Origin: Candidatus Micrarchaeia archaeon
GTDB lineage: Archaea > Micrarchaeota > Micrarchaeia > Burarchaeales > JAVZCV01
Length of the DNA stretch: 25,986 bases
NCBI GenBank assembly: GCA_038874215.1
Contig: JAVZCV010000017.1
Span: 1-25,986, forward strand
Reading direction: 5' to 3'
Shown here one piece after another: positions 788 to 13,823 of the stretch (its first letter is position 1; the number at the start of each line of letters is the position of its first letter). Made by a program: the position numbers and the translations under genes. The notes below the pieces were generated by a model. It was not told the DNA's origin. It did no database searches and saw only the letters and a program-made list of their open reading frames with translations.

Positions 788-855
788 CACTCTCACCCCC
801 TTTTTATTTTTATAACCATAAATTTAAAGCTTACTGTTTGCAAAAATTAAGCATT

Positions 856-2316
856 ATGAAGAGAGGAACCATTTACTCTGCTTTAATCTTTCTCCTCCTA
901 ATAGGAGTGAGAACTCCTGTCGCAGGTAAAATAGACCTCTTTCTATCTGACTATGTTGAACCGAGCGAGAAGTACCAGTTATTACCGTTTCATGTTAGCT
1001 CTGGAAACTACACACTCGTAGTAATTGAAGGAAAAGAGACGTTCATGATTGATGTCGATCCCCTTGTTATCCTAAACGAAAGCGAGAAGGTTAAAGGAAT
1101 ATTCGCTGAGAGAGTGTTCATTGATGCAAATTATGACCAGAGCATACAGCACATTTTAAAAAATATAGATATATTCAACGCAAGCAGGCATCCAAGCGAA
1201 CGAATATGCCGCCAATACACAGGTACCGACAGGTTTGAATGCATAGACCATGACTCATGCCTTTTTGCATGCTACTCTGTCCCCGTTTGTACTGATACAA
1301 TAGCGGCAGAAGGCTTCCTTCAATCAATAAAGGAATGGTCCACCCTCGTATACCTTCTTGACGGCAACATCACAAAACTAAAAACAAAAGTGAATTCTGG
1401 CTTACGCTCTGCGGGAGATGCAGACGACGCCCTTTCAATTGTGGATTCCATCCAGCGCACTGTTTCCGCCATAAATGCATCAAAACTCGTTCAAACATGC
1501 GGCGATTGCTTCAACTTCTGCCCTCCACCCGACTACAACATGAGCGCCATAAAAAATGTGCGCACACTCCTTTCCTCTCTCCGCTCAAACTTGCAGGCTT
1601 TGGATAGCATAGACAACCGAACGGGCACCCTATTCGTGAATATGCAGGAGCGTTTTGAGTATATAAACAACAGGAACGCCCGTTATAAGGCGCTGACATC
1701 AAAAATGTTCTCCATTAAGCCGACCCTCTTTGCACGCGCGGGCATATCGCTCAACTGCATAAACGATACCGAATTATCCATGGCGCTTACTCTGCTTGAA
1801 AACCTCACGGGTGAGATAGCTGAGGCTGGCAAAAGCGGAGAATATCACAGGGCTTTTTTGATGGAAGAAGCGTTTGATGAACTCGTTTCAGAAATAAATG
1901 AAACGATAAACGAGGACGTGTCTCTCTGTAACATGCTTCGGAACAAGACTGCCGACATGTTAAAACGCATTGACTTGGCGGCAAAACTCTCTGCTGGAAA
2001 CATCACGCTTGAAACGCACGCAGCCCTATTGTTAACGCAGGCAAAAACAATTGAGGAGAAAACAAACACCACGGTTGAAAAGTCAGAAGTCGCTTCAATC
2101 AATTCAGATATTGACTCGCTTATACAGGAGGCAGACGACCTTATAGTAAATGCCACCCTCTACCAAAATGAAAAGAAGGCATCTGAAAGCATAAACCAGA
2201 CTGGCGCAGGTGCGGATAAGGGATTACCATGCATATTGCCCGTTCTCGTACTGGCTTATCTGCTCGCCTTCTCAACTCTAAAACCCAACAAAATTAATAA
2301 ACAGCGAATACAATAA
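856..2316 (+). CDS. Secreted, C-terminally anchored Cys-rich coiled-coil surface protein (paralog 1)
   Basis: Signal peptide MKRGTIYSALIFLLLIG; Cys cluster CRQYTGTDRFECIDHDSCLFACYSVPVC; long helical region with many N-x-S/T sequons; C-terminal PCILPVLVLAYLLAFS plus a basic tail. ATG 856 preferred to TTG 838. Confidence 0.8.
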   Translation: MKRGTIYSALIFLLLIGVRTPVAGKIDLFLSDYVEPSEKYQLLPFHVSSGNYTLVVIEGKETFMIDVDPLVILNESEKVKGIFAERVFIDANYDQSIQHILKNIDIFNASRHPSERICRQYTGTDRFECIDHDSCLFACYSVPVCTDTIAAEGFLQSIKEWSTLVYLLDGNITKLKTKVNSGLRSAGDADDALSIVDSIQRTVSAINASKLVQTCGDCFNFCPPPDYNMSAIKNVRTLLSSLRSNLQALDSIDNRTGTLFVNMQERFEYINNRNARYKALTSKMFSIKPTLFARAGISLNCINDTELSMALTLLENLTGEIAEAGKSGEYHRAFLMEEAFDELVSEINETINEDVSLCNMLRNKTADMLKRIDLAAKLSAGNITLETHAALLLTQAKTIEEKTNTTVEKSEVASINSDIDSLIQEADDLIVNATLYQNEKKASESINQTGAGADKGLPCILPVLVLAYLLAFSTLKPNKINKQRIQ

Positions 2317-2322
2317 ACCAGC

Positions 2323-4350
2323 ATGGAAAAGCCACTCAAATCCGCATTAGCGCTTTTCTTACTGCTCTTTTTCCAATGCTTACATGCGCAGACTGTTGAG
2401 GAACGCGTGGGTAAAAAGATAGGCCAATACCTACTAAACGAATCTTTCTCCGTGCAGCCGTTAAGTGTAGGCGGGATAGACTACTATCTCGTGTGCGTAG
2501 ATGGAACTGACACGTTTCTTCTAAAAGCACTACCCAACACGGACCTTTTCATCGTAGATTCGGATAGGGAAATAGCTTTTGTACTTAGAGCTCATTATAG
2601 AAAATACTACGAGAAATCTGTCGCAGAATTGCGCGATTACATACTACTTTTCAACAGGAGCAGGGAGCCGAAAGAAAGTGCGTGCAAGCGCGATCTCGGA
2701 ATTGATCTCTATCCATGCTACGATAGGGATAGTTGCCTCAAGGCTTGCTACACGCCAGTATGCCAGGGTGCAAGGACAGAGCTCGCATTTTTAGATGCGA
2801 TGCGCGATTTTTATAGAGATGCAAGAGAAATAGACACCGCCGTAGATGAAATGAACAATGGGCTTTACGCATATGCTGGCTCTGATTATGAGCAAGGCAA
2901 GCTTCCAGCTTTCGGCCTTTTTGGCAGAATAGAAACTGCGATATCCAACCTAGACAAAAACAAGATCTTCCTGAGTGTCATAGACATGGGCTATATGTTC
3001 TGCAACCCCATTCCGTTCAACACAACGGCTCTTGAGACTGCCAAGAATAAACTTATTGAGATAGCAAACCACCAACCGACGGTTGGAAGTGCGGATTCAA
3101 AAGCTTCAGAAATAGTGCTAAACACCAGAAGAAGGATTGAAGCATACGAGAAGCGTATTCAGGAATATAACCTGAGACTTGCCCTCCTAAAATCAAATGT
3201 CTCCGCAGATTTTGAGAGTGTAAGAGAAGTTGTTGAATTCTCCGAGCAACGCATGCACTCGCCTGAACTAACCGCCCTTCTTGAAAACCTCAATGAAAGC
3301 AAGGGCTCAATAATCGCAAATGACAACCTAACTCATGCCGAGCTCCTTGCTTCCGATTTTGCGAAAGAAGCCTCACGTGTAAACAGCACAGCACTCTACC
3401 TGCTTTCCGTATACGACACGCTCATCATCAGGAGCAATTCCCTCACCTCTCGGCTCATAGATGCGAAAACAAAATTTCAATATACATACAGCATACGAGA
3501 GATAAAAAAACTTGAGGAGAGAAAAAGGGCCGTTGACCAAATCCTGTCATCGCCCGTTAACGTGTGGGAGATACAGAAAATAAGAAACGAACTCAATGAG
3601 ATAGAGGAATCGCTTAATAAGATAGAGGCCATCGGTGAAAAGCCCACAATAATCAGTTGGCTTGCAATAGAGTTTGGAGTAGATGCCGAAGGATTTTTTG
3701 AGACGTTAAAGCTCGCCGCCTTTATATTCTTCATACTACTTTTTGCCTCCATCGGTGCTGCGTACTTATATTATAGAACTACGAAAGAGTCCATCACTCA
3801 ACTAATAGTGAAGCTACCCTCTCACTTTTCTCGCCTTACCAGCCAGCCCAAAACAATTGGGGAGGCATTTGGTGAAAAGGGCAATGTAGCTGCAAACGAA
3901 GCCGTGCAAAAGGAACCCCTTGAAAATGCGATGCTCAAAACTCCAAAATATTCAGGCGATGATGCCAGCGATAAAACAAAAAAGATAGAGGAAGAGAAAA
4001 CGGCACCATCAAAAACATCATTTGGTTTTCCCAAGATATCGCTTCTCGGAATGTTGCGTGGAAAGGAGAGGAAAGACGAGATACCCGAGCTTAAAGTCAG
4101 AACTCTTTTTAAGAAGGGAAACGCATACTATGCTGTTATTGGGAGCGTCATAAGAGACCAGTCTGGGATGCTCGTCCCAGATGGGACGACCGTCAGTTTC
4201 TCAATAGACCACGGCAAGATAACGAAGAGTGCGAAGACTGTCAAGGGAAAGGTATATGCGAAGATGGGGTTTGCGAAAAAGCCAGAGAGTGCGATAGTGA
4301 CGATAACGTGTGGCAGAATAACACGAAAATTCAGGCTCGTGTTCTATTAG
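2323..4350 (+). CDS. Cys-rich coiled-coil single-pass membrane protein with C-terminal Ig-like domain (paralog 2)
   Basis: Signal peptide; same Cys motif (CKRDLGIDLYPCYDRDSCLKACYTPVC); TM helix AAFIFFILLFASIGAAYLYY; C-terminal 'IRDQSGMLVPDGTTVSF' resembles invasin/intimin Big_1. Starts 6 bp after the previous stop. Confidence 0.8.
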   Translation: MEKPLKSALALFLLLFFQCLHAQTVEERVGKKIGQYLLNESFSVQPLSVGGIDYYLVCVDGTDTFLLKALPNTDLFIVDSDREIAFVLRAHYRKYYEKSVAELRDYILLFNRSREPKESACKRDLGIDLYPCYDRDSCLKACYTPVCQGARTELAFLDAMRDFYRDAREIDTAVDEMNNGLYAYAGSDYEQGKLPAFGLFGRIETAISNLDKNKIFLSVIDMGYMFCNPIPFNTTALETAKNKLIEIANHQPTVGSADSKASEIVLNTRRRIEAYEKRIQEYNLRLALLKSNVSADFESVREVVEFSEQRMHSPELTALLENLNESKGSIIANDNLTHAELLASDFAKEASRVNSTALYLLSVYDTLIIRSNSLTSRLIDAKTKFQYTYSIREIKKLEERKRAVDQILSSPVNVWEIQKIRNELNEIEESLNKIEAIGEKPTIISWLAIEFGVDAEGFFETLKLAAFIFFILLFASIGAAYLYYRTTKESITQLIVKLPSHFSRLTSQPKTIGEAFGEKGNVAANEAVQKEPLENAMLKTPKYSGDDASDKTKKIEEEKTAPSKTSFGFPKISLLGMLRGKERKDEIPELKVRTLFKKGNAYYAVIGSVIRDQSGMLVPDGTTVSFSIDHGKITKSAKTVKGKVYAKMGFAKKPESAIVTITCGRITRKFRLVFY

Positions 4351-4352
4351 AG

Positions 4353-6137
4353 ATGAGCTTTATGAACTGCGACTCTTTAAAGGCATTTTTGCTATTTCAC
4401 CGTGCAACAGCCATCCTTATTCTCCTAGGTGTATCTATCAGGATTATTTTCATGCCATTGGCCGCCCATGGGGACATGGCATACATATTTTTTGCATACA
4501 GCCACTTTTCTCCAGATAAGCCGAACATAGGATATACGCTTCAAACCTTATACGGCGGAACTTCTGGTAAAAGTCTTCCATACCCGCCTCTCACTGGCTA
4601 TGTCTTCTGGGGATATATCTCGTTAATCCGAATTTTGCACGCTATCGGACCAGATTCCCTCTCTCTTCACAATACTCTAAACTGCACCAACACGTTAGGA
4701 TTTAACGGCATCTTTTTACTCATGAAGTTATTCTACTTCCCTTTTGACTTAGGCATCGCGCTTCTGCTCGTGGGAATTACTGGAAAGACGGGAGAAAAGT
4801 TTGCCGCAGCTTTATGGGCTTTCTCACCAGTACTAATCTATGACTGGGCTATGCGTGGCCAGTTTGACGTGATACCCGCCTTTTTTCTTACCCTCGCCTT
4901 CTTTTTTGCAAAGCACGTGAAAAATTCATGGTGGCACAAAGCAGCTCTCCTTTGCCTTTCTCTTGGAGGTGCGTTGAAAATATATCCTCTCTTCCTTGTT
5001 CCTCTCTTTGCAATAATTCTTGGAGAAGGAAAAATAACAAAAACAATGCACCTTTTTGCGTGGGGTTTGCTCCCATTTGCCATTAGCGTTTTTTTAGACT
5101 TTCATTCATTTGTAACCCTTTTCGTTGATAATACAGGAAGGCTTCACCCACTGTTCCTACTATCTTGCGCCGTGCTATCCTTTGCTTCAATATTCTCCAG
5201 AAAGAATCTGGACTCGCTCCTTCAATATTCAACCGCAATCCTAACGTTATATTTCGTTTTGTGCTGGTCTGAACCCTACCACTACACATGGATTACACCG
5301 TTGCTGATAATTGCGGTTGCATGGCGCCGTGAACTTGCCCCATTTTACGCTTTACAGCTTTGCTACTTCTTATTTCTCCTCATACCACGCACAGGTGCTC
5401 TCGGATTTCTATTACATGAGCCCGTTTCATTTGCGGCAAAATCCGCCTTCCTCGCCTCTTCCTTTGCCTTTTTGTATGGCGTTTTTTGGCGTTTGCCTTT
5501 TGGTATCAATTCAAAAGCGTGGTGGTGCATAATACTACTTCCGTTTATACTGCTCGTGGCGGCATTCTTCCTTAAAGCTGGCATAGGCGATATAGATGGT
5601 ATTAAAATTCTAAACTGTGCGTCCTTCAACAATTTTATAACACTCTCCTCTGGCCAGACTATTGAACAGAATTTTTTCTCAAAAGCCGACAAGCTCAATA
5701 GAATAACATTGTATGCTGGAAAACAAGCCGAAGCAAACGCCACATTTCACCTTCTCCAAGATGGAAAGGAAGTTCTGGTTCTTCCTCTCGCTTTGGAAGC
5801 CGACTTATGGAGAACTTATCCATATGTAGAGTTCCCGCCCCTTGCCTCCAAAAACAAGAACTATACTCTCTGCATTACGGCTGAATCAGGTACAGTTGTG
5901 GTAGCATATAACTCCTACAACATATACAGCTTTGGAGACATGCGTCTAAACGGTAGAACAATAGATGGCGACATCTACTTTATTGCATCCCATGCCTTAA
6001 ATCCAAACGAAGCGATTGAATACGGAATTAGCTCATTTGTGAGCGGTGCGCAGGAAAATCCTTCACTATTTGCCCTCTACTTGCTCCTACTTGCAATTCC
6101 CTTTTTCTCATTGTTATGGCTAATAAAAACGCCCTGA
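4353..6137 (+). CDS. GT-C fold multi-pass membrane glycosyltransferase (GT87/PIG-M-like) with a C-terminal soluble domain
   Basis: Motifs HGD..YPPL, KLFYFPFDL, WAFSPVLI..GQFDVIP and LKIYPL, many TM helices. ATG 4353 lies 2 bp after the upstream stop. Confidence 0.75.
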   Translation: MSFMNCDSLKAFLLFHRATAILILLGVSIRIIFMPLAAHGDMAYIFFAYSHFSPDKPNIGYTLQTLYGGTSGKSLPYPPLTGYVFWGYISLIRILHAIGPDSLSLHNTLNCTNTLGFNGIFLLMKLFYFPFDLGIALLLVGITGKTGEKFAAALWAFSPVLIYDWAMRGQFDVIPAFFLTLAFFFAKHVKNSWWHKAALLCLSLGGALKIYPLFLVPLFAIILGEGKITKTMHLFAWGLLPFAISVFLDFHSFVTLFVDNTGRLHPLFLLSCAVLSFASIFSRKNLDSLLQYSTAILTLYFVLCWSEPYHYTWITPLLIIAVAWRRELAPFYALQLCYFLFLLIPRTGALGFLLHEPVSFAAKSAFLASSFAFLYGVFWRLPFGINSKAWWCIILLPFILLVAAFFLKAGIGDIDGIKILNCASFNNFITLSSGQTIEQNFFSKADKLNRITLYAGKQAEANATFHLLQDGKEVLVLPLALEADLWRTYPYVEFPPLASKNKNYTLCITAESGTVVVAYNSYNIYSFGDMRLNGRTIDGDIYFIASHALNPNEAIEYGISSFVSGAQENPSLFALYLLLLAIPFFSLLWLIKTP

Positions 6138-11139: not shown

Positions 11140-12903
11140 CTAACAAACTATCTTTGTTCCTGGATATTCCTTAGATTTGCTGAATAGTGCATAAGGATGG
11201 ACTACAGATACTGATGGAATTACTCCATCTGATAGTTCAAATAGTGAGCGCATAATCTGAACTGCCTTTGGCTCTATGACAGCCCTGCCGCCCGATTCTA
11301 CCACTCTCTTTACTTCGTTTTCCAGCTCCGAAATGCTCATTTGCGGCACAACACTTCCTCCTTCACTTTCCCCAAAATTTGCCACAATACCTCCCGTATC
11401 CTTAACATATACGAGCTCAACAGATGGTGTAAGAGCCGAACGAATAAAACTGCGAAGTCTCGTAGCATGTCTTTCAGCATCCTGCCTACCTTCTTTTATA
11501 GCAGAGAGGTATTCCTGCCTGAGTTGCATAAATTGTTTCCTTGCTTCTTCATTGCCTCTAACATGTTCCATAAATCTATTGTAAAGTATTTCTAACTCAG
11601 TTTCATTAACCCTCCCAATAGCGCGGAGTCTGTTCTCTAATGATGCCATTCTTGCCCGAAGGTTGCTATATCCGTTTTCCCTGTTTTCTTTCCTCAACTC
11701 ATCCTGTATCCATTTAATTTTAGTAAAAATCGTAAACCTTTCAGCCAATCTGTCTGAATGCTTGTCTTCCAATTCCGCAACACACGTCGCAATCTCTGCT
11801 GCAGTTATATCGCTACCGTTTGTGCCAAGCGTTACCAATCCCCTTCCATGCGCTACAAGAGGGCCCTTATCAGCAACATACGTCCCTATAAAGCCAGGTA
11901 TGACTACTATCTTTCCATGATTAAGAAGGGGTATTATGTGTGATCTAATCATTCTCCCTGTTTTCTCGTGGTCTATGTCTACCCCAAAGATAACGCGTTC
12001 TTGGCTTCCATCGCTTCTTTCCCTTACAGTGAAATCCTGCAATATTTCACCTTTGGCAGATACGACAACCTGCCCATTCAAAGTCACATTCCCCCTACTA
12101 TCAAGTTGCAGGAGTTCATCCTTACTTGCAGTCCATATAGGCCAACGCTCATCGCTAGGCCCTATATACTCAACGTTCCCAGGTTTTCCGCTACGAACCT
12201 CCAATTCTGCAGCGATTAAACGCACAGATTCGCGTTCTCCGCTTGCCAAAGTATCATCAAGATGCCTTACAAATTCACGTAATCTTTCTAATCTATCAAC
12301 AGGGTTGGTTGCATCTCTTAGATAGTCATGGATAGTTATCCCACGCCTTGTCAGCTCGTCCCACAACTCGCTCGTTTTTCTTCCTATTGCAGAAACAACT
12401 AAAACTATGCGAGCACCGCTTTTTGCTTCATCTATTATCTGTGGCATCATCTTTTCTGTAAGCTCTGGGAGGAGGGTTTTCCCACCGAGTTTTATTACTA
12501 CCGTCCTCCTTCCTAGGACACCCCTCAAAACTTGAAATCCCGTAGCCTCACTGCCACCAAAGCCAACGAGTTCGCTTACAAGATTCCTTAATTCTGCGTC
12601 TTGAATCCTACTACACATATTCCCAATTTTTGGGTCGTTTCTGCATCCCTCATCAACTTTTTTAACTATCGCCATAGCCAAGGTTATATCGCTAATGACC
12701 CGTCCTTGCCTTCCTGGTTCACCACGCAGAAGCGCATCCTTTATCATTTCTACTCCCCTATCAAATATCCTATATGTTACATACCCATTAACTCGGTCTA
12801 GCCTTCTGCGCGCGTATTCTATTATCCTCACGCCTAGCTCTAAAAGTTGCGCTATCCTTTGCTTTTGCACTCTATCATCTGTAGGGACCTTTATTCTTCG
12901 CAT
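11140..12903 (-). CDS. Divergent aspartokinase-like (amino-acid kinase family) protein with large insertions and no ACT domains
   Basis: VIKLGG, LVVSAIG, ASGERES, VVIPGFIG, VTLGTNGSDITAAEIA, YVKDTGGI and GGRAVIEPKAV match the order of aspartokinase catalytic motifs. SD GGTGG. Confidence 0.8.
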   Translation of the reverse strand: MRRIKVPTDDRVQKQRIAQLLELGVRIIEYARRRLDRVNGYVTYRIFDRGVEMIKDALLRGEPGRQGRVISDITLAMAIVKKVDEGCRNDPKIGNMCSRIQDAELRNLVSELVGFGGSEATGFQVLRGVLGRRTVVIKLGGKTLLPELTEKMMPQIIDEAKSGARIVLVVSAIGRKTSELWDELTRRGITIHDYLRDATNPVDRLERLREFVRHLDDTLASGERESVRLIAAELEVRSGKPGNVEYIGPSDERWPIWTASKDELLQLDSRGNVTLNGQVVVSAKGEILQDFTVRERSDGSQERVIFGVDIDHEKTGRMIRSHIIPLLNHGKIVVIPGFIGTYVADKGPLVAHGRGLVTLGTNGSDITAAEIATCVAELEDKHSDRLAERFTIFTKIKWIQDELRKENRENGYSNLRARMASLENRLRAIGRVNETELEILYNRFMEHVRGNEEARKQFMQLRQEYLSAIKEGRQDAERHATRLRSFIRSALTPSVELVYVKDTGGIVANFGESEGGSVVPQMSISELENEVKRVVESGGRAVIEPKAVQIMRSLFELSDGVIPSVSVVHPYALFSKSKEYPGTKIVC

Positions 12904-13081: not shown

Positions 13082-13185
13082 GCCCCAGTAGCTCAGTGGT
13101 AGAGCGCTCGCCTTGTAAAGGTGAGAGCATTTTCTCCTAACCTCACGAAAGCGAGAAGTCGGGGGTTCAAGTCCCTCCTGGGGCT
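13082..13185 (+). tRNA. tRNA-Thr(UGU) with a 32-nt intron at 37/38 (13118-13149); CCA not encoded
   Basis: Acceptor GCCCCAG/CTGGGGC, D-arm GCTC/GAGC, anticodon stem CTCGC/GCGAG, anticodon TGT at 13114-13116, T-loop TTCAAGT, discriminator U. Bulge-helix-bulge-like junction. Confidence 0.95.
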
Positions 13186-13272
13186 TCCTCTCCAACACCA
13201 TCTCAACAAACAATCGGGGAGGGTCAGGAGGAACCTGAAACTGGGGAGGGTGGAACCCCTCCGCGGTTCGGC

Positions 13273-13308
13273 AGCGAGAAGTCGGGGGTTCAAGTCCCTC
13301 CTGGGGCT
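13273..13308 (+). repeat. Exact 36-bp direct repeat of the tRNA-Thr 3' exon (13150-13185)
   Basis: AGCGAGAAGTCGGGGGTTCAAGTCCCTCCTGGGGCT is identical at both places, with an 87-bp spacer between them. Confidence 0.97.
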
Positions 13309-13319
13309 AGTGGCCTATC

Positions 13320-13823
13320 CTATGCAATACGCTGAGGCCCTCCATTCCGCTGCGCTCTGCTATTTTGTCCCCTTCCACGTGAGACTACTCCGGTTTTTGA
13401 TAGTAACCGTCTAGCATTACTCAAACTCGGTCCTTCGTAGTTCTTATCTTCCACTTGTGCAGCTTTTGCATGTTTCAATAGAGCTATACTTCTTCTGTCT
13501 CTGGCATAATCAGCCGGTAGCTTTCCATCTCCATCCCTCACCATAGGATTCGCACCCGCCTCAACCAACATCCTCACAACCTCAGCATGCCCATTCTTAG
13601 CCGCCAAATGCAACGCCGTCCTCTCACATTCACCCCTCGCATTAACATCCACACCCGCCTCAATCAACATCCTCACAATCTCAACATTCCCTTTAATAGC
13701 CGCCCAATACAACACCGTATTTCCATATTCATCCCTCGCATTCGGATCTGCTCCTTTCCTAACAAGTTCCACTACTCTACCAACATTGCCATCTATAACA
13801 GCCTCAAATAACTCTTCCTTCAT
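13320..13823 (-). CDS. Ankyrin-repeat protein with basic low-complexity C-terminal tail
   Basis: GADPNARDEYGNTVLYWAA..GNVEIVRMLIEAGVDVNA..RTALHLAAKNGHAEVVRMLVEAGANP. SD-like GAGGGGA. Confidence 0.93.
   Translation of the reverse strand: MKEELFEAVIDGNVGRVVELVRKGADPNARDEYGNTVLYWAAIKGNVEIVRMLIEAGVDVNARGECERTALHLAAKNGHAEVVRMLVEAGANPMVRDGDGKLPADYARDRRSIALLKHAKAAQVEDKNYEGPSLSNARRLLSKTGVVSRGRGQNSRAQRNGGPQRIA
13552..13755. repeat. About 99-bp tandem DNA repeat encoding consecutive ankyrin units
   Basis: cacccgcctcaaccaacatcctcacaacctcagcat versus cacccgcctcaatcaacatcctcacaatctcaacat, 99 bp apart. Confidence 0.8.

Follow-up and report, generated by a model that had tools for sequence, protein, structure and literature searches.

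The locus described here lies in a stretch of 25,986 nt (the window), which comprises positions 1 to 25,986 of contig JAVZCV010000017.1 from a Candidatus Micrarchaeia archaeon of the order Burarchaeales. The genome to which it belongs (G000; assembly GCA_038874215.1) has a size of 1.13 Mb, is divided into 38 contigs and is 91% complete. The window carries an intron-containing tRNA-Thr(UGU) gene, followed by a short spacer and then by a second, isolated copy of the 3' exon of the same gene (Table 1).

Table 1. Features of the tRNA-Thr(UGU) locus, numbered by position in the window
Feature	Coordinates	Strand	Evidence
5' exon of tRNA-Thr(UGU), positions 1-37	13082..13117	+	RF00005 match, parsing, fold of spliced product
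32-nt intron at 37/38, near-canonical bulge-helix-bulge	13118..13149	+	Helix geometry
Proximal 3' exon, positions 38-73 (DR1), completes the tRNA	13150..13185	+	Rfam match, repeat search, parsing
30-nt filler, found nowhere else in the genome and not shared by other copies of E	13186..13215	+	BLAST, flank comparison
Element E, 56-nt copy of a multi-copy repeat	13216..13271	+	Covariance model R1
Single C separating E from the distal repeat	13272..13272	+	Sequence
Distal orphan copy of the 3' exon (DR2)	13273..13308	+	36/36 identity with DR1
First T5 run downstream, possible terminator	13394..13398	+	T-run scan

The tRNA gene (13082-13185, plus strand) scores 61.9 bits against the Rfam tRNA model RF00005, the match including a 34-nt insertion within the anticodon loop. 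The spliced product is a 72-mer whose minimum-energy fold is a cloverleaf (-32.3 kcal/mol) with the anticodon UGU. At the proximal junction, the central helix has three of four pairs (C32:G, U34:A and G35:C, with a U33:C mismatch), accompanied by a 4-bp flanking helix (AGGU/ACCU). This agrees with an archaeal tRNA gene that has a canonical bulge-helix-bulge intron, in which removal of an intron at 37/38 gives a cloverleaf and a 4-bp helix lies between two 3-nt bulges; the junction here is near-canonical. The same geometry was also checked by hand on the Thr(CGU) intron of contig C13. The genome also encodes a splicing endonuclease at G000:C2:36262-36741, where a single frame contains two tRNA_int_endo matches.

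Run with default settings, ARAGORN predicts no tRNA anywhere in the window; once introns are permitted, the tRNA-Thr(UGU) gene is detected and mislabelled as Ser(tga). Across the genome, there are 19 matches to the Rfam tRNA model, 15 of them above the cut-off, while intron-aware ARAGORN gives 16 tRNAs. Several of these are mislabelled, which shows the extent to which the tRNA genes of this organism are interrupted.

The initial annotation had pointed to an exact orphan copy of the 3' exon running from position 38 to the discriminator, and this is borne out: DR1 and DR2 are identical at 36 of 36 positions in a repeat search. Because the base preceding each copy differs (A versus C), identity starts at position 38, that is, exactly at the 3' splice site, as had been proposed; because the bases following the copies differ (TCCT versus AGTG), it ends at discriminator 73. 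BLAST found no third copy of the exon in the 1.13-Mb genome. The 87-nt spacer consists of filler, one copy of the element E and a single C, and filler and spacer have only chance matches of 11-16 nt elsewhere in the genome. Two further claims also stood: no Pfam integrase is present among the 22 ORFs scanned in the window, and searches by BLAST and regular expression give no 5' half for the orphan exon other than the local one.

A T-run scan found none between 13186 and 13362, the first being a T4 at 13363-13366. The complete Thr(CGU) and Thr(GGU) genes of the same genome have a T5 within about 10 nt of their 3' ends. Since the first T5 of the present locus follows the distal copy (Table 1), the transcript may read through both copies of the exon.

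Several neighbouring genes were also noted. A 587-aa protein with an amino-acid-kinase domain is encoded at 11140-12903 on the minus strand, next to the tRNA locus, and no orthologue was detected in the 28 other genomes of the order or in a metagenome scan. On the other side, a 167-aa ankyrin-repeat protein with two 99-nt internal repeats (13320-13823, minus strand) is convergent with the tRNA, its ORF ending 12 nt beyond DR2. No Pfam match was obtained for three large ORFs that follow one another at 838-6137 on the plus strand (492, 675 and 609 aa).

Assembled reads cover the arrangement. Independent contigs built with k=31 from run X1 of a hot-spring study, which is probably the source sample, extend over 13088-13179, 13156-13302 and 13279-13595, so that all four junctions are covered. 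As k=31 is shorter than the 36-nt repeat, these contigs are also compatible with a single-copy gene plus a 123-nt circle, or with a longer tandem array. The contig 13156-13302 has a depth of 12.6, against 7.5 and 8.0 for the adjoining contigs, which may reflect noise, a tandem array or an extrachromosomal form. Almost nothing of the stretch occurs in the contigs of runs X2 and X3. One X1 contig joins 13117 to 13273; its 5' exon has 3 mismatches, and it was consequently read as the Thr gene of another organism.

Element E and the places it occupies

Element E is a non-coding repeat of 56-57 nt. Both of its ends are sharp, and the flanks of different copies are unrelated. It begins with a short 5' hairpin, continues with a long imperfect palindrome (AACTG-G-GGAGGG..CCCTCC-G-CGGTT) and closes with a CGG tail. 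In the alignment and consensus structure, compensating changes accompany variation at the tip of the palindrome, and the hairpin is retained with different sequences in more diverged subfamilies. Hairpin tips of copies at L067, L071, L109, L151 and L169 contain other, nested sequences, so that the unit measures 92-93 nt or its 5' hairpin is split. Such tips thus resemble hot spots of insertion.

When 40 relatives were searched at the DNA level with the locus, matches were confined to the tRNA and to 13216-13271, the latter many times per genome. A covariance model (R1) built from 44 copies gives 132 matches in 16 of the 29 genomes of the order, with 1-24 copies per genome. The copy in the window scores 76.7 bits (E-value 7e-13) and is the sole copy in its genome, which thus offers no donor of its own. 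An exact 30-letter pattern of the element occurs at 59 loci in a one-genome-per-species collection; 48 of these records are titled Micrarchaeota, Micrarchaeia or Micrarchaeales, and the remaining 11 comprise three titled Iainarchaeum, two Altiarchaeales, one Thermoplasmatota and five simply archaeon. E is, then, a dispersed multi-copy family with defined ends. The spacer and E match no Rfam family up to an E-value of 10, and E is absent from the viral contigs searched with two patterns.

The position of E relative to genes was assessed with ARAGORN on 138 distinct contexts. Across relatives, its GGTTCGG end lies 0-2 nt from tRNA exon or gene boundaries. Seven of 12 downstream tRNA genes are within 2 nt of this end or overlap it; most of these seven abut tail to tail at N73, and one abuts by its 5' end. 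Where E lies in sense orientation in an anticodon-loop intron with a plausible call, it ends at most 1 nt from the intron end (5/5), and in one antisense case the GGTTCGG end is 2 nt from the intron edge that adjoins the 5' exon. None of seven upstream tRNAs comes closer than 17 nt to the 5' end of the element. The same abutment was seen by eye in T-loop introns. In all, E abuts more than 10 different tRNAs and several protein-gene starts. In the tRNA-Thr(UGU), Thr(CGU), Ser, Arg and other genes of relatives, it ends 0-2 nt before the working 3' exon. It is also found between genes.

Two copies are read in frame. At L044:469-708, E and a 15-nt duplication provide a 28-residue N-terminal extension of a PolB-like ORF, and at L049 (around 496-552) a copy is inserted within a TruD-like ORF. 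The idea that E is a self-contained spliceable intron was discarded on the evidence of the latter copy, which is read in frame and whose CCTCA variant removes an in-frame TGA, making translation more likely than splicing there.

Related introns show further variation. The Thr(CGU) intron of G021 (L203, G021:C76, about 3151-3211, minus strand) is without E and ends in ...TCCGCGGGG before the exon, an end that resembles the tail of E in the congener G015. It may be that the tail of E overlaps with the end of an older intron. T-loop introns of several relatives (L024, L028, L042, L052, L068 and L087; for example L024:1585-1640) harbour a second repeat family, in which CCCTTTCTTTT..AAAGAAAGG hairpins precede CCCCAAAGAAAA. 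This family has been gained or lost between congeners: the tRNA-Ile gene has a T-loop intron in G015 and G021 and none in G023.

A search for a mobilising enzyme covered four families (Y1_Tnp, RVT_1, TnpB and Cas1) in the 29 incomplete genomes of the order, and no cognate enzyme for E was found among them. G000 itself has no match to a Y1 transposase, a reverse transcriptase or TnpB. IS200/IS605 or RAYT activity was rejected, as Y1_Tnp occurs in 3 of the 29 genomes and is absent from the richest E carriers. The notion that E is a TnpB guide-RNA scaffold fared no better, since TnpB counts run opposite to E counts. Reverse transcriptase was likewise set aside: RVT_1 is present in 4/29 genomes (4/16 E carriers) as stand-alone ORFs, none of which adjoins E; one weak partial E-like match lies 2.4 kb from one of these ORFs. 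Cas1 or a casposase was rejected because Cas1 occurs in only 4/29 genomes. The small genome G000 has two Cas1 genes (G000:C7:37359-38192 and G000:C4:46338-47183), and Cas1 is found in 3 of the 28 other genomes of the order.

Duplicated flanks and the origin of the orphan exon

The layout of the window, in which a complete tRNA is followed by filler, E and a copy of the tRNA 3' part, recurs at five other loci (L077, L108, L136, L151 and L117). More generally, an exact repeat of at least 12 nt, taken from the 3' flank of E and counted if it starts 0-3 nt after the element, occurs again upstream of E in 30 of the 126 copies with an aligned 3' end. These 30 comprise 17 simple loci, two of them doubtful owing to very long filler, and 13 copies in composite or tandem arrays. 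In a first sample, repeats of at least 13 nt were present at 10/55 true boundaries and at 0/54 boundaries shifted by 150 nt. Of 111 copies submitted to local alignment against shuffled flanks, 39 reached significance (p at most 0.005), and among copies with long flanks (n = 68), 19 were significant as against 7 when the flank was displaced by 100 nt.

The duplications are 11-36 nt long and of many different sequences, protein-gene starts included. At its 3' junction E is exact, and at its 5' junction 6-60 nt of unrelated filler intervene. There is accordingly neither a fixed duplication length nor a pair of terminal inverted repeats. Two inverted pairs of E were considered as possible terminal inverted repeats and dismissed; they lack a common flank, and one of them is formed by two separate T-loop introns. 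The proposal that filler is copied from the upstream flank of the donor was also dropped, as outside composite arrays only L061 and L085 share 30 nt upstream of E.

Congeners were compared at sites with and without E. At G014:C3, a protein-gene start of 26 nt is present twice, and the 66 nt of inserted DNA between the two copies include a 9-nt filler and E; the matching site of the congener G004 (G004:C8) has one copy and no E. At G015:C69, E is accompanied by a duplication of the last 11 nt of tRNA-Arg, which is single-copy and without E in G021:C41 and G023:C174. At G015:C78, it is accompanied by a duplication of the last 11 nt of tRNA-Ile, again single-copy and without E in G023:C115. In all three pairs, the copy after E keeps the ancestral downstream flank. 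Thus, at three loci other than that of the window, two of them at tRNA 3' ends, presence and absence of E can be set against a single-copy empty target, and E arrived together with a target duplication of 11-26 nt.

By analogy, the orphan exon is probably a target duplication that accompanied insertion of E, with the upstream copy working and the downstream copy a by-product. A short mobile unit, made up of the 30-nt filler and the 56-nt E, would have inserted at the 3' end of a tRNA-Thr(UGU) gene that already had its intron, duplicating 36 nt of target that correspond to the 3' exon. The duplication would result from breaks staggered by 36 nt that were then filled in. The upstream copy would have stayed joined to the 5' exon and the 32-nt intron, giving a working tRNA, while the downstream copy would abut the GGTTCGG end of E and keep what appears to be the ancestral downstream flank. 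The distal copy would most likely be a by-product without a role. It is inferred from the shared layout that the process at the window was the same as at the three other loci; no empty-site allele or close relative of the window locus was found in the 28 other genomes of the order or in metagenome scans. The exact 36-mer has no match in the metagenome collection, and a protein scan there yielded no confirmed relative.

Some features fit this explanation less well. Both limits of the repeat are exact, one at the 3' splice site and the other at N73, a combination that a random staggered cut would rarely give. The N73 end does recur: with the window counted, five of six tRNA-linked loci have an upstream repeat whose last base is N73 or lies up to 2 nt beyond it. 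A start at position 38 shows no such recurrence, as repeat starts in the six loci vary from position 38 to about 63, and it would represent either a coincidence or an effect of targeting. Variable duplication length and the lack of terminal inverted repeats are also unlike ordinary transposons. The raised depth of contig 13156-13302 also counts against it, as does the presence in G000 of a single copy of E with no match to a Y1 transposase, a reverse transcriptase or TnpB. Finally, the perfect identity over 36 nt could reflect selection on the distal copy or gene conversion.

Other readings of the distal copy have to be weighed against insertion. It could be a working alternative 3' exon, used when the transcript is read through and a 155-nt intron (13118-13272) ending in E is removed, in a gene that is either acquiring or losing a long intron with E. 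Such use concerns function and can coexist with an origin by insertion; we consider it unlikely. The initial annotation had raised this pairing of the 5' exon with the distal exon, and one part of the idea gains from the relatives, in whose working tRNA genes E likewise ends 0-2 nt before the 3' exon; moreover, no T-run separates the two copies, the distal one is identical at every position, and at L136, L151 and L117 the tRNA-derived part of DR2 is identical while the sequence that follows differs. The splice geometry is less accommodating. In the canonical arrangement, the motif at 13117/13118 and 13272/13273 forms two of four central-helix pairs and has no flanking helix, against three of four pairs and a 4-bp helix at the proximal junction, although working E-bearing introns of relatives have a similar 3' junction and the endonuclease type of this phylum is reported to accept relaxed splice motifs (PMC3239211). 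The proximal exon is also transcribed first and completes the cloverleaf, and in the three filled and empty pairs it is the sequence after DR1 that differs, as inserted DNA. A trans-spliced split tRNA, in which the orphan half would join a Thr 5' half encoded elsewhere, accounts for identity that begins at the splice site, and yet its likelihood is close to nil. The suggestion that Thr(CGU) and Thr(GGU) might be missing or reduced to orphan 5' halves does not hold, as in G000 both are complete alongside Thr(UGU), at C13:20248-20374 (with an intron at 37/38) and C33:8469-8558 (with a T-loop intron), respectively. In the 91%-complete assembly, only the local 5' exon could pair with the orphan half, two other regular-expression matches not being tRNA-like. 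Nor is there a partner trailer: no complement of at least 13 nt to 13240-13272 exists outside the locus, and the two 12-mer complements, on C7 and C38, are at chance level and lie on contigs that have no tRNA match. The leader of the orphan half is a dispersed repeat rather than a unique pairing segment.

Direct repeats of a tRNA 3' part around inserted DNA are a hallmark of SSV- and pNOB8-type integration according to an account in PMC3293823, and such a repeat is present here (36 nt around 87 nt), ending at N73 as it does within 0-2 nt in five of the six tRNA-linked loci. A tyrosine-integrase element could accordingly have recombined in the 3' exon and later been deleted to 87 nt, leaving attL and attR, with E as the attR-side arm. 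The proposal of an att scar was correct in that the exon copies flank inserted mobile DNA; the insert, though, is a 57-nt non-coding repeat with filler, and an integrase remnant was not borne out, none being encoded by the 22 window ORFs scanned. The family has no single conserved attachment sequence. It lies beside more than 10 tRNAs and several protein-gene starts, with repeats that vary in sequence and length, which fits duplication at insertion rather than a site-specific att core. In the G014/G004 pair, the duplicated protein-gene start encloses no more than 66 nt of inserted DNA. Neither pattern detected E in viral contigs, and neither of the two candidate E pairs checked forms element ends with a common flank. 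An integrase att scar at the window is unlikely, and the full history of integration followed by deletion to 87 nt strikes us as quite improbable. Still less credible, to the point of being very improbable, is that the distal copy is what is left of the 3' part of another tRNA-Thr(UGU) gene, in tandem with the first, which had E in its intron and lost its 5' exon by deletion. Identity from 38 to 73 would then need no coincidence, since only exons would be common to the two genes, and E-bearing Thr introns do exist in relatives; this history nevertheless leaves unexplained the same layout at protein-gene starts and the three filled and empty pairs, and no other duplicated tRNA gene is found among the tRNA matches of the genome.

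Insertion with target duplication might be part of a broader process. It is conceivable, if rather unlikely, that E moves by an undescribed kind of copy-and-paste aimed at tRNA processing boundaries and that the resulting exon duplication seeds new tRNA introns. If so, this movement would be recognizable by a 3' junction that is exact, a 5' junction that is ragged and duplications of 11-36 nt, and the window would represent a two-exon intermediate. Loss of the proximal copy would then leave a long E-bearing intron at 37/38, as seen in the Thr, Ser and Arg genes of relatives. Among the significant local alignments, no relics of an old exon copy were found in the E-bearing introns of relatives.

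Significance and relation to known systems

These observations bear on how archaeal tRNA genes gain introns and become fragmented. Here a 57-nt non-coding repeat, and not an element with its own recombinase, is linked to exact duplication of the 3' portions of tRNA genes, a link supported by the three filled and empty pairs of congeners. Its docking on tRNA boundaries at 0-2 nt makes E a tractable system for studying how mobile DNA is targeted to such boundaries, and for asking whether exon duplication is a step in the birth of introns. There is also a warning for annotation: an orphan tRNA half in a DPANN genome is not necessarily a split tRNA. A full-text search for literature on DPANN tRNA introns with repeat elements gave no match, and the papers found on Micrarchaeota tRNA introns do not, by title or abstract, deal with such a repeat.

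Split and tri-split tRNA genes are known from Nanoarchaeum and Caldivirga. Like them, the window has a free-standing tRNA 3' half that begins at the intron position; unlike them, it has no missing isoacceptor, partner half or complementary leader.

Small non-autonomous repeats of compact genomes include MITEs, REP/REPIN sequences with their RAYT, and Rickettsia palindromic elements. E resembles these in being short, hairpin-forming, multi-copy and sharp-ended, and in occurring between genes, in RNA genes and in frame in proteins. It differs from them in having no terminal inverted repeats, a long and variable duplication, one exact end with filler at the other, and no link to a Y1 transposase. 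Non-LTR elements and SINEs inserted by target priming have a precise 3' junction, a 5' junction that varies and includes additional sequence, and target duplications of varying length. E shares all of these traits; in contrast to non-LTR retroelements and SINEs, it has no poly-A or other retroelement hallmark.

Transposition of tRNA introns in Thermoproteales was reportedly described by Fujishima et al. in 2010. As in that case, related modules are common to the introns of different tRNA genes. E, however, also occurs outside introns and in either orientation, and it is associated with target duplications and with presence and absence at the DNA level. The Thermoproteales transposition is mentioned as a positive control in an Asgard preprint (10.64898/2026.10.13.758758).

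Close parallels in layout are archaeal integrative elements of the SSV1 (44-bp att) and pNOB8 type, which are bordered by direct repeats of a tRNA 3' part, and the model of tRNA-Thr disruption of Sugahara et al. 2012, which involves kilobase-sized integrase elements, as these are presented in PMC3293823. Unlike in these cases, the insert of the window is 87 nt long and has no recombinase, E is found beside many targets with duplications of 11-36 nt, and its filled and empty pairs show duplication from a single-copy target. Common to these elements, the Sugahara model and the window are a reconstituted tRNA, inserted DNA and an orphan copy of part of the same tRNA, which in that model is also a Thr tRNA. 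As in the model, mobile DNA is linked to the remodelling of tRNA genes and their introns.
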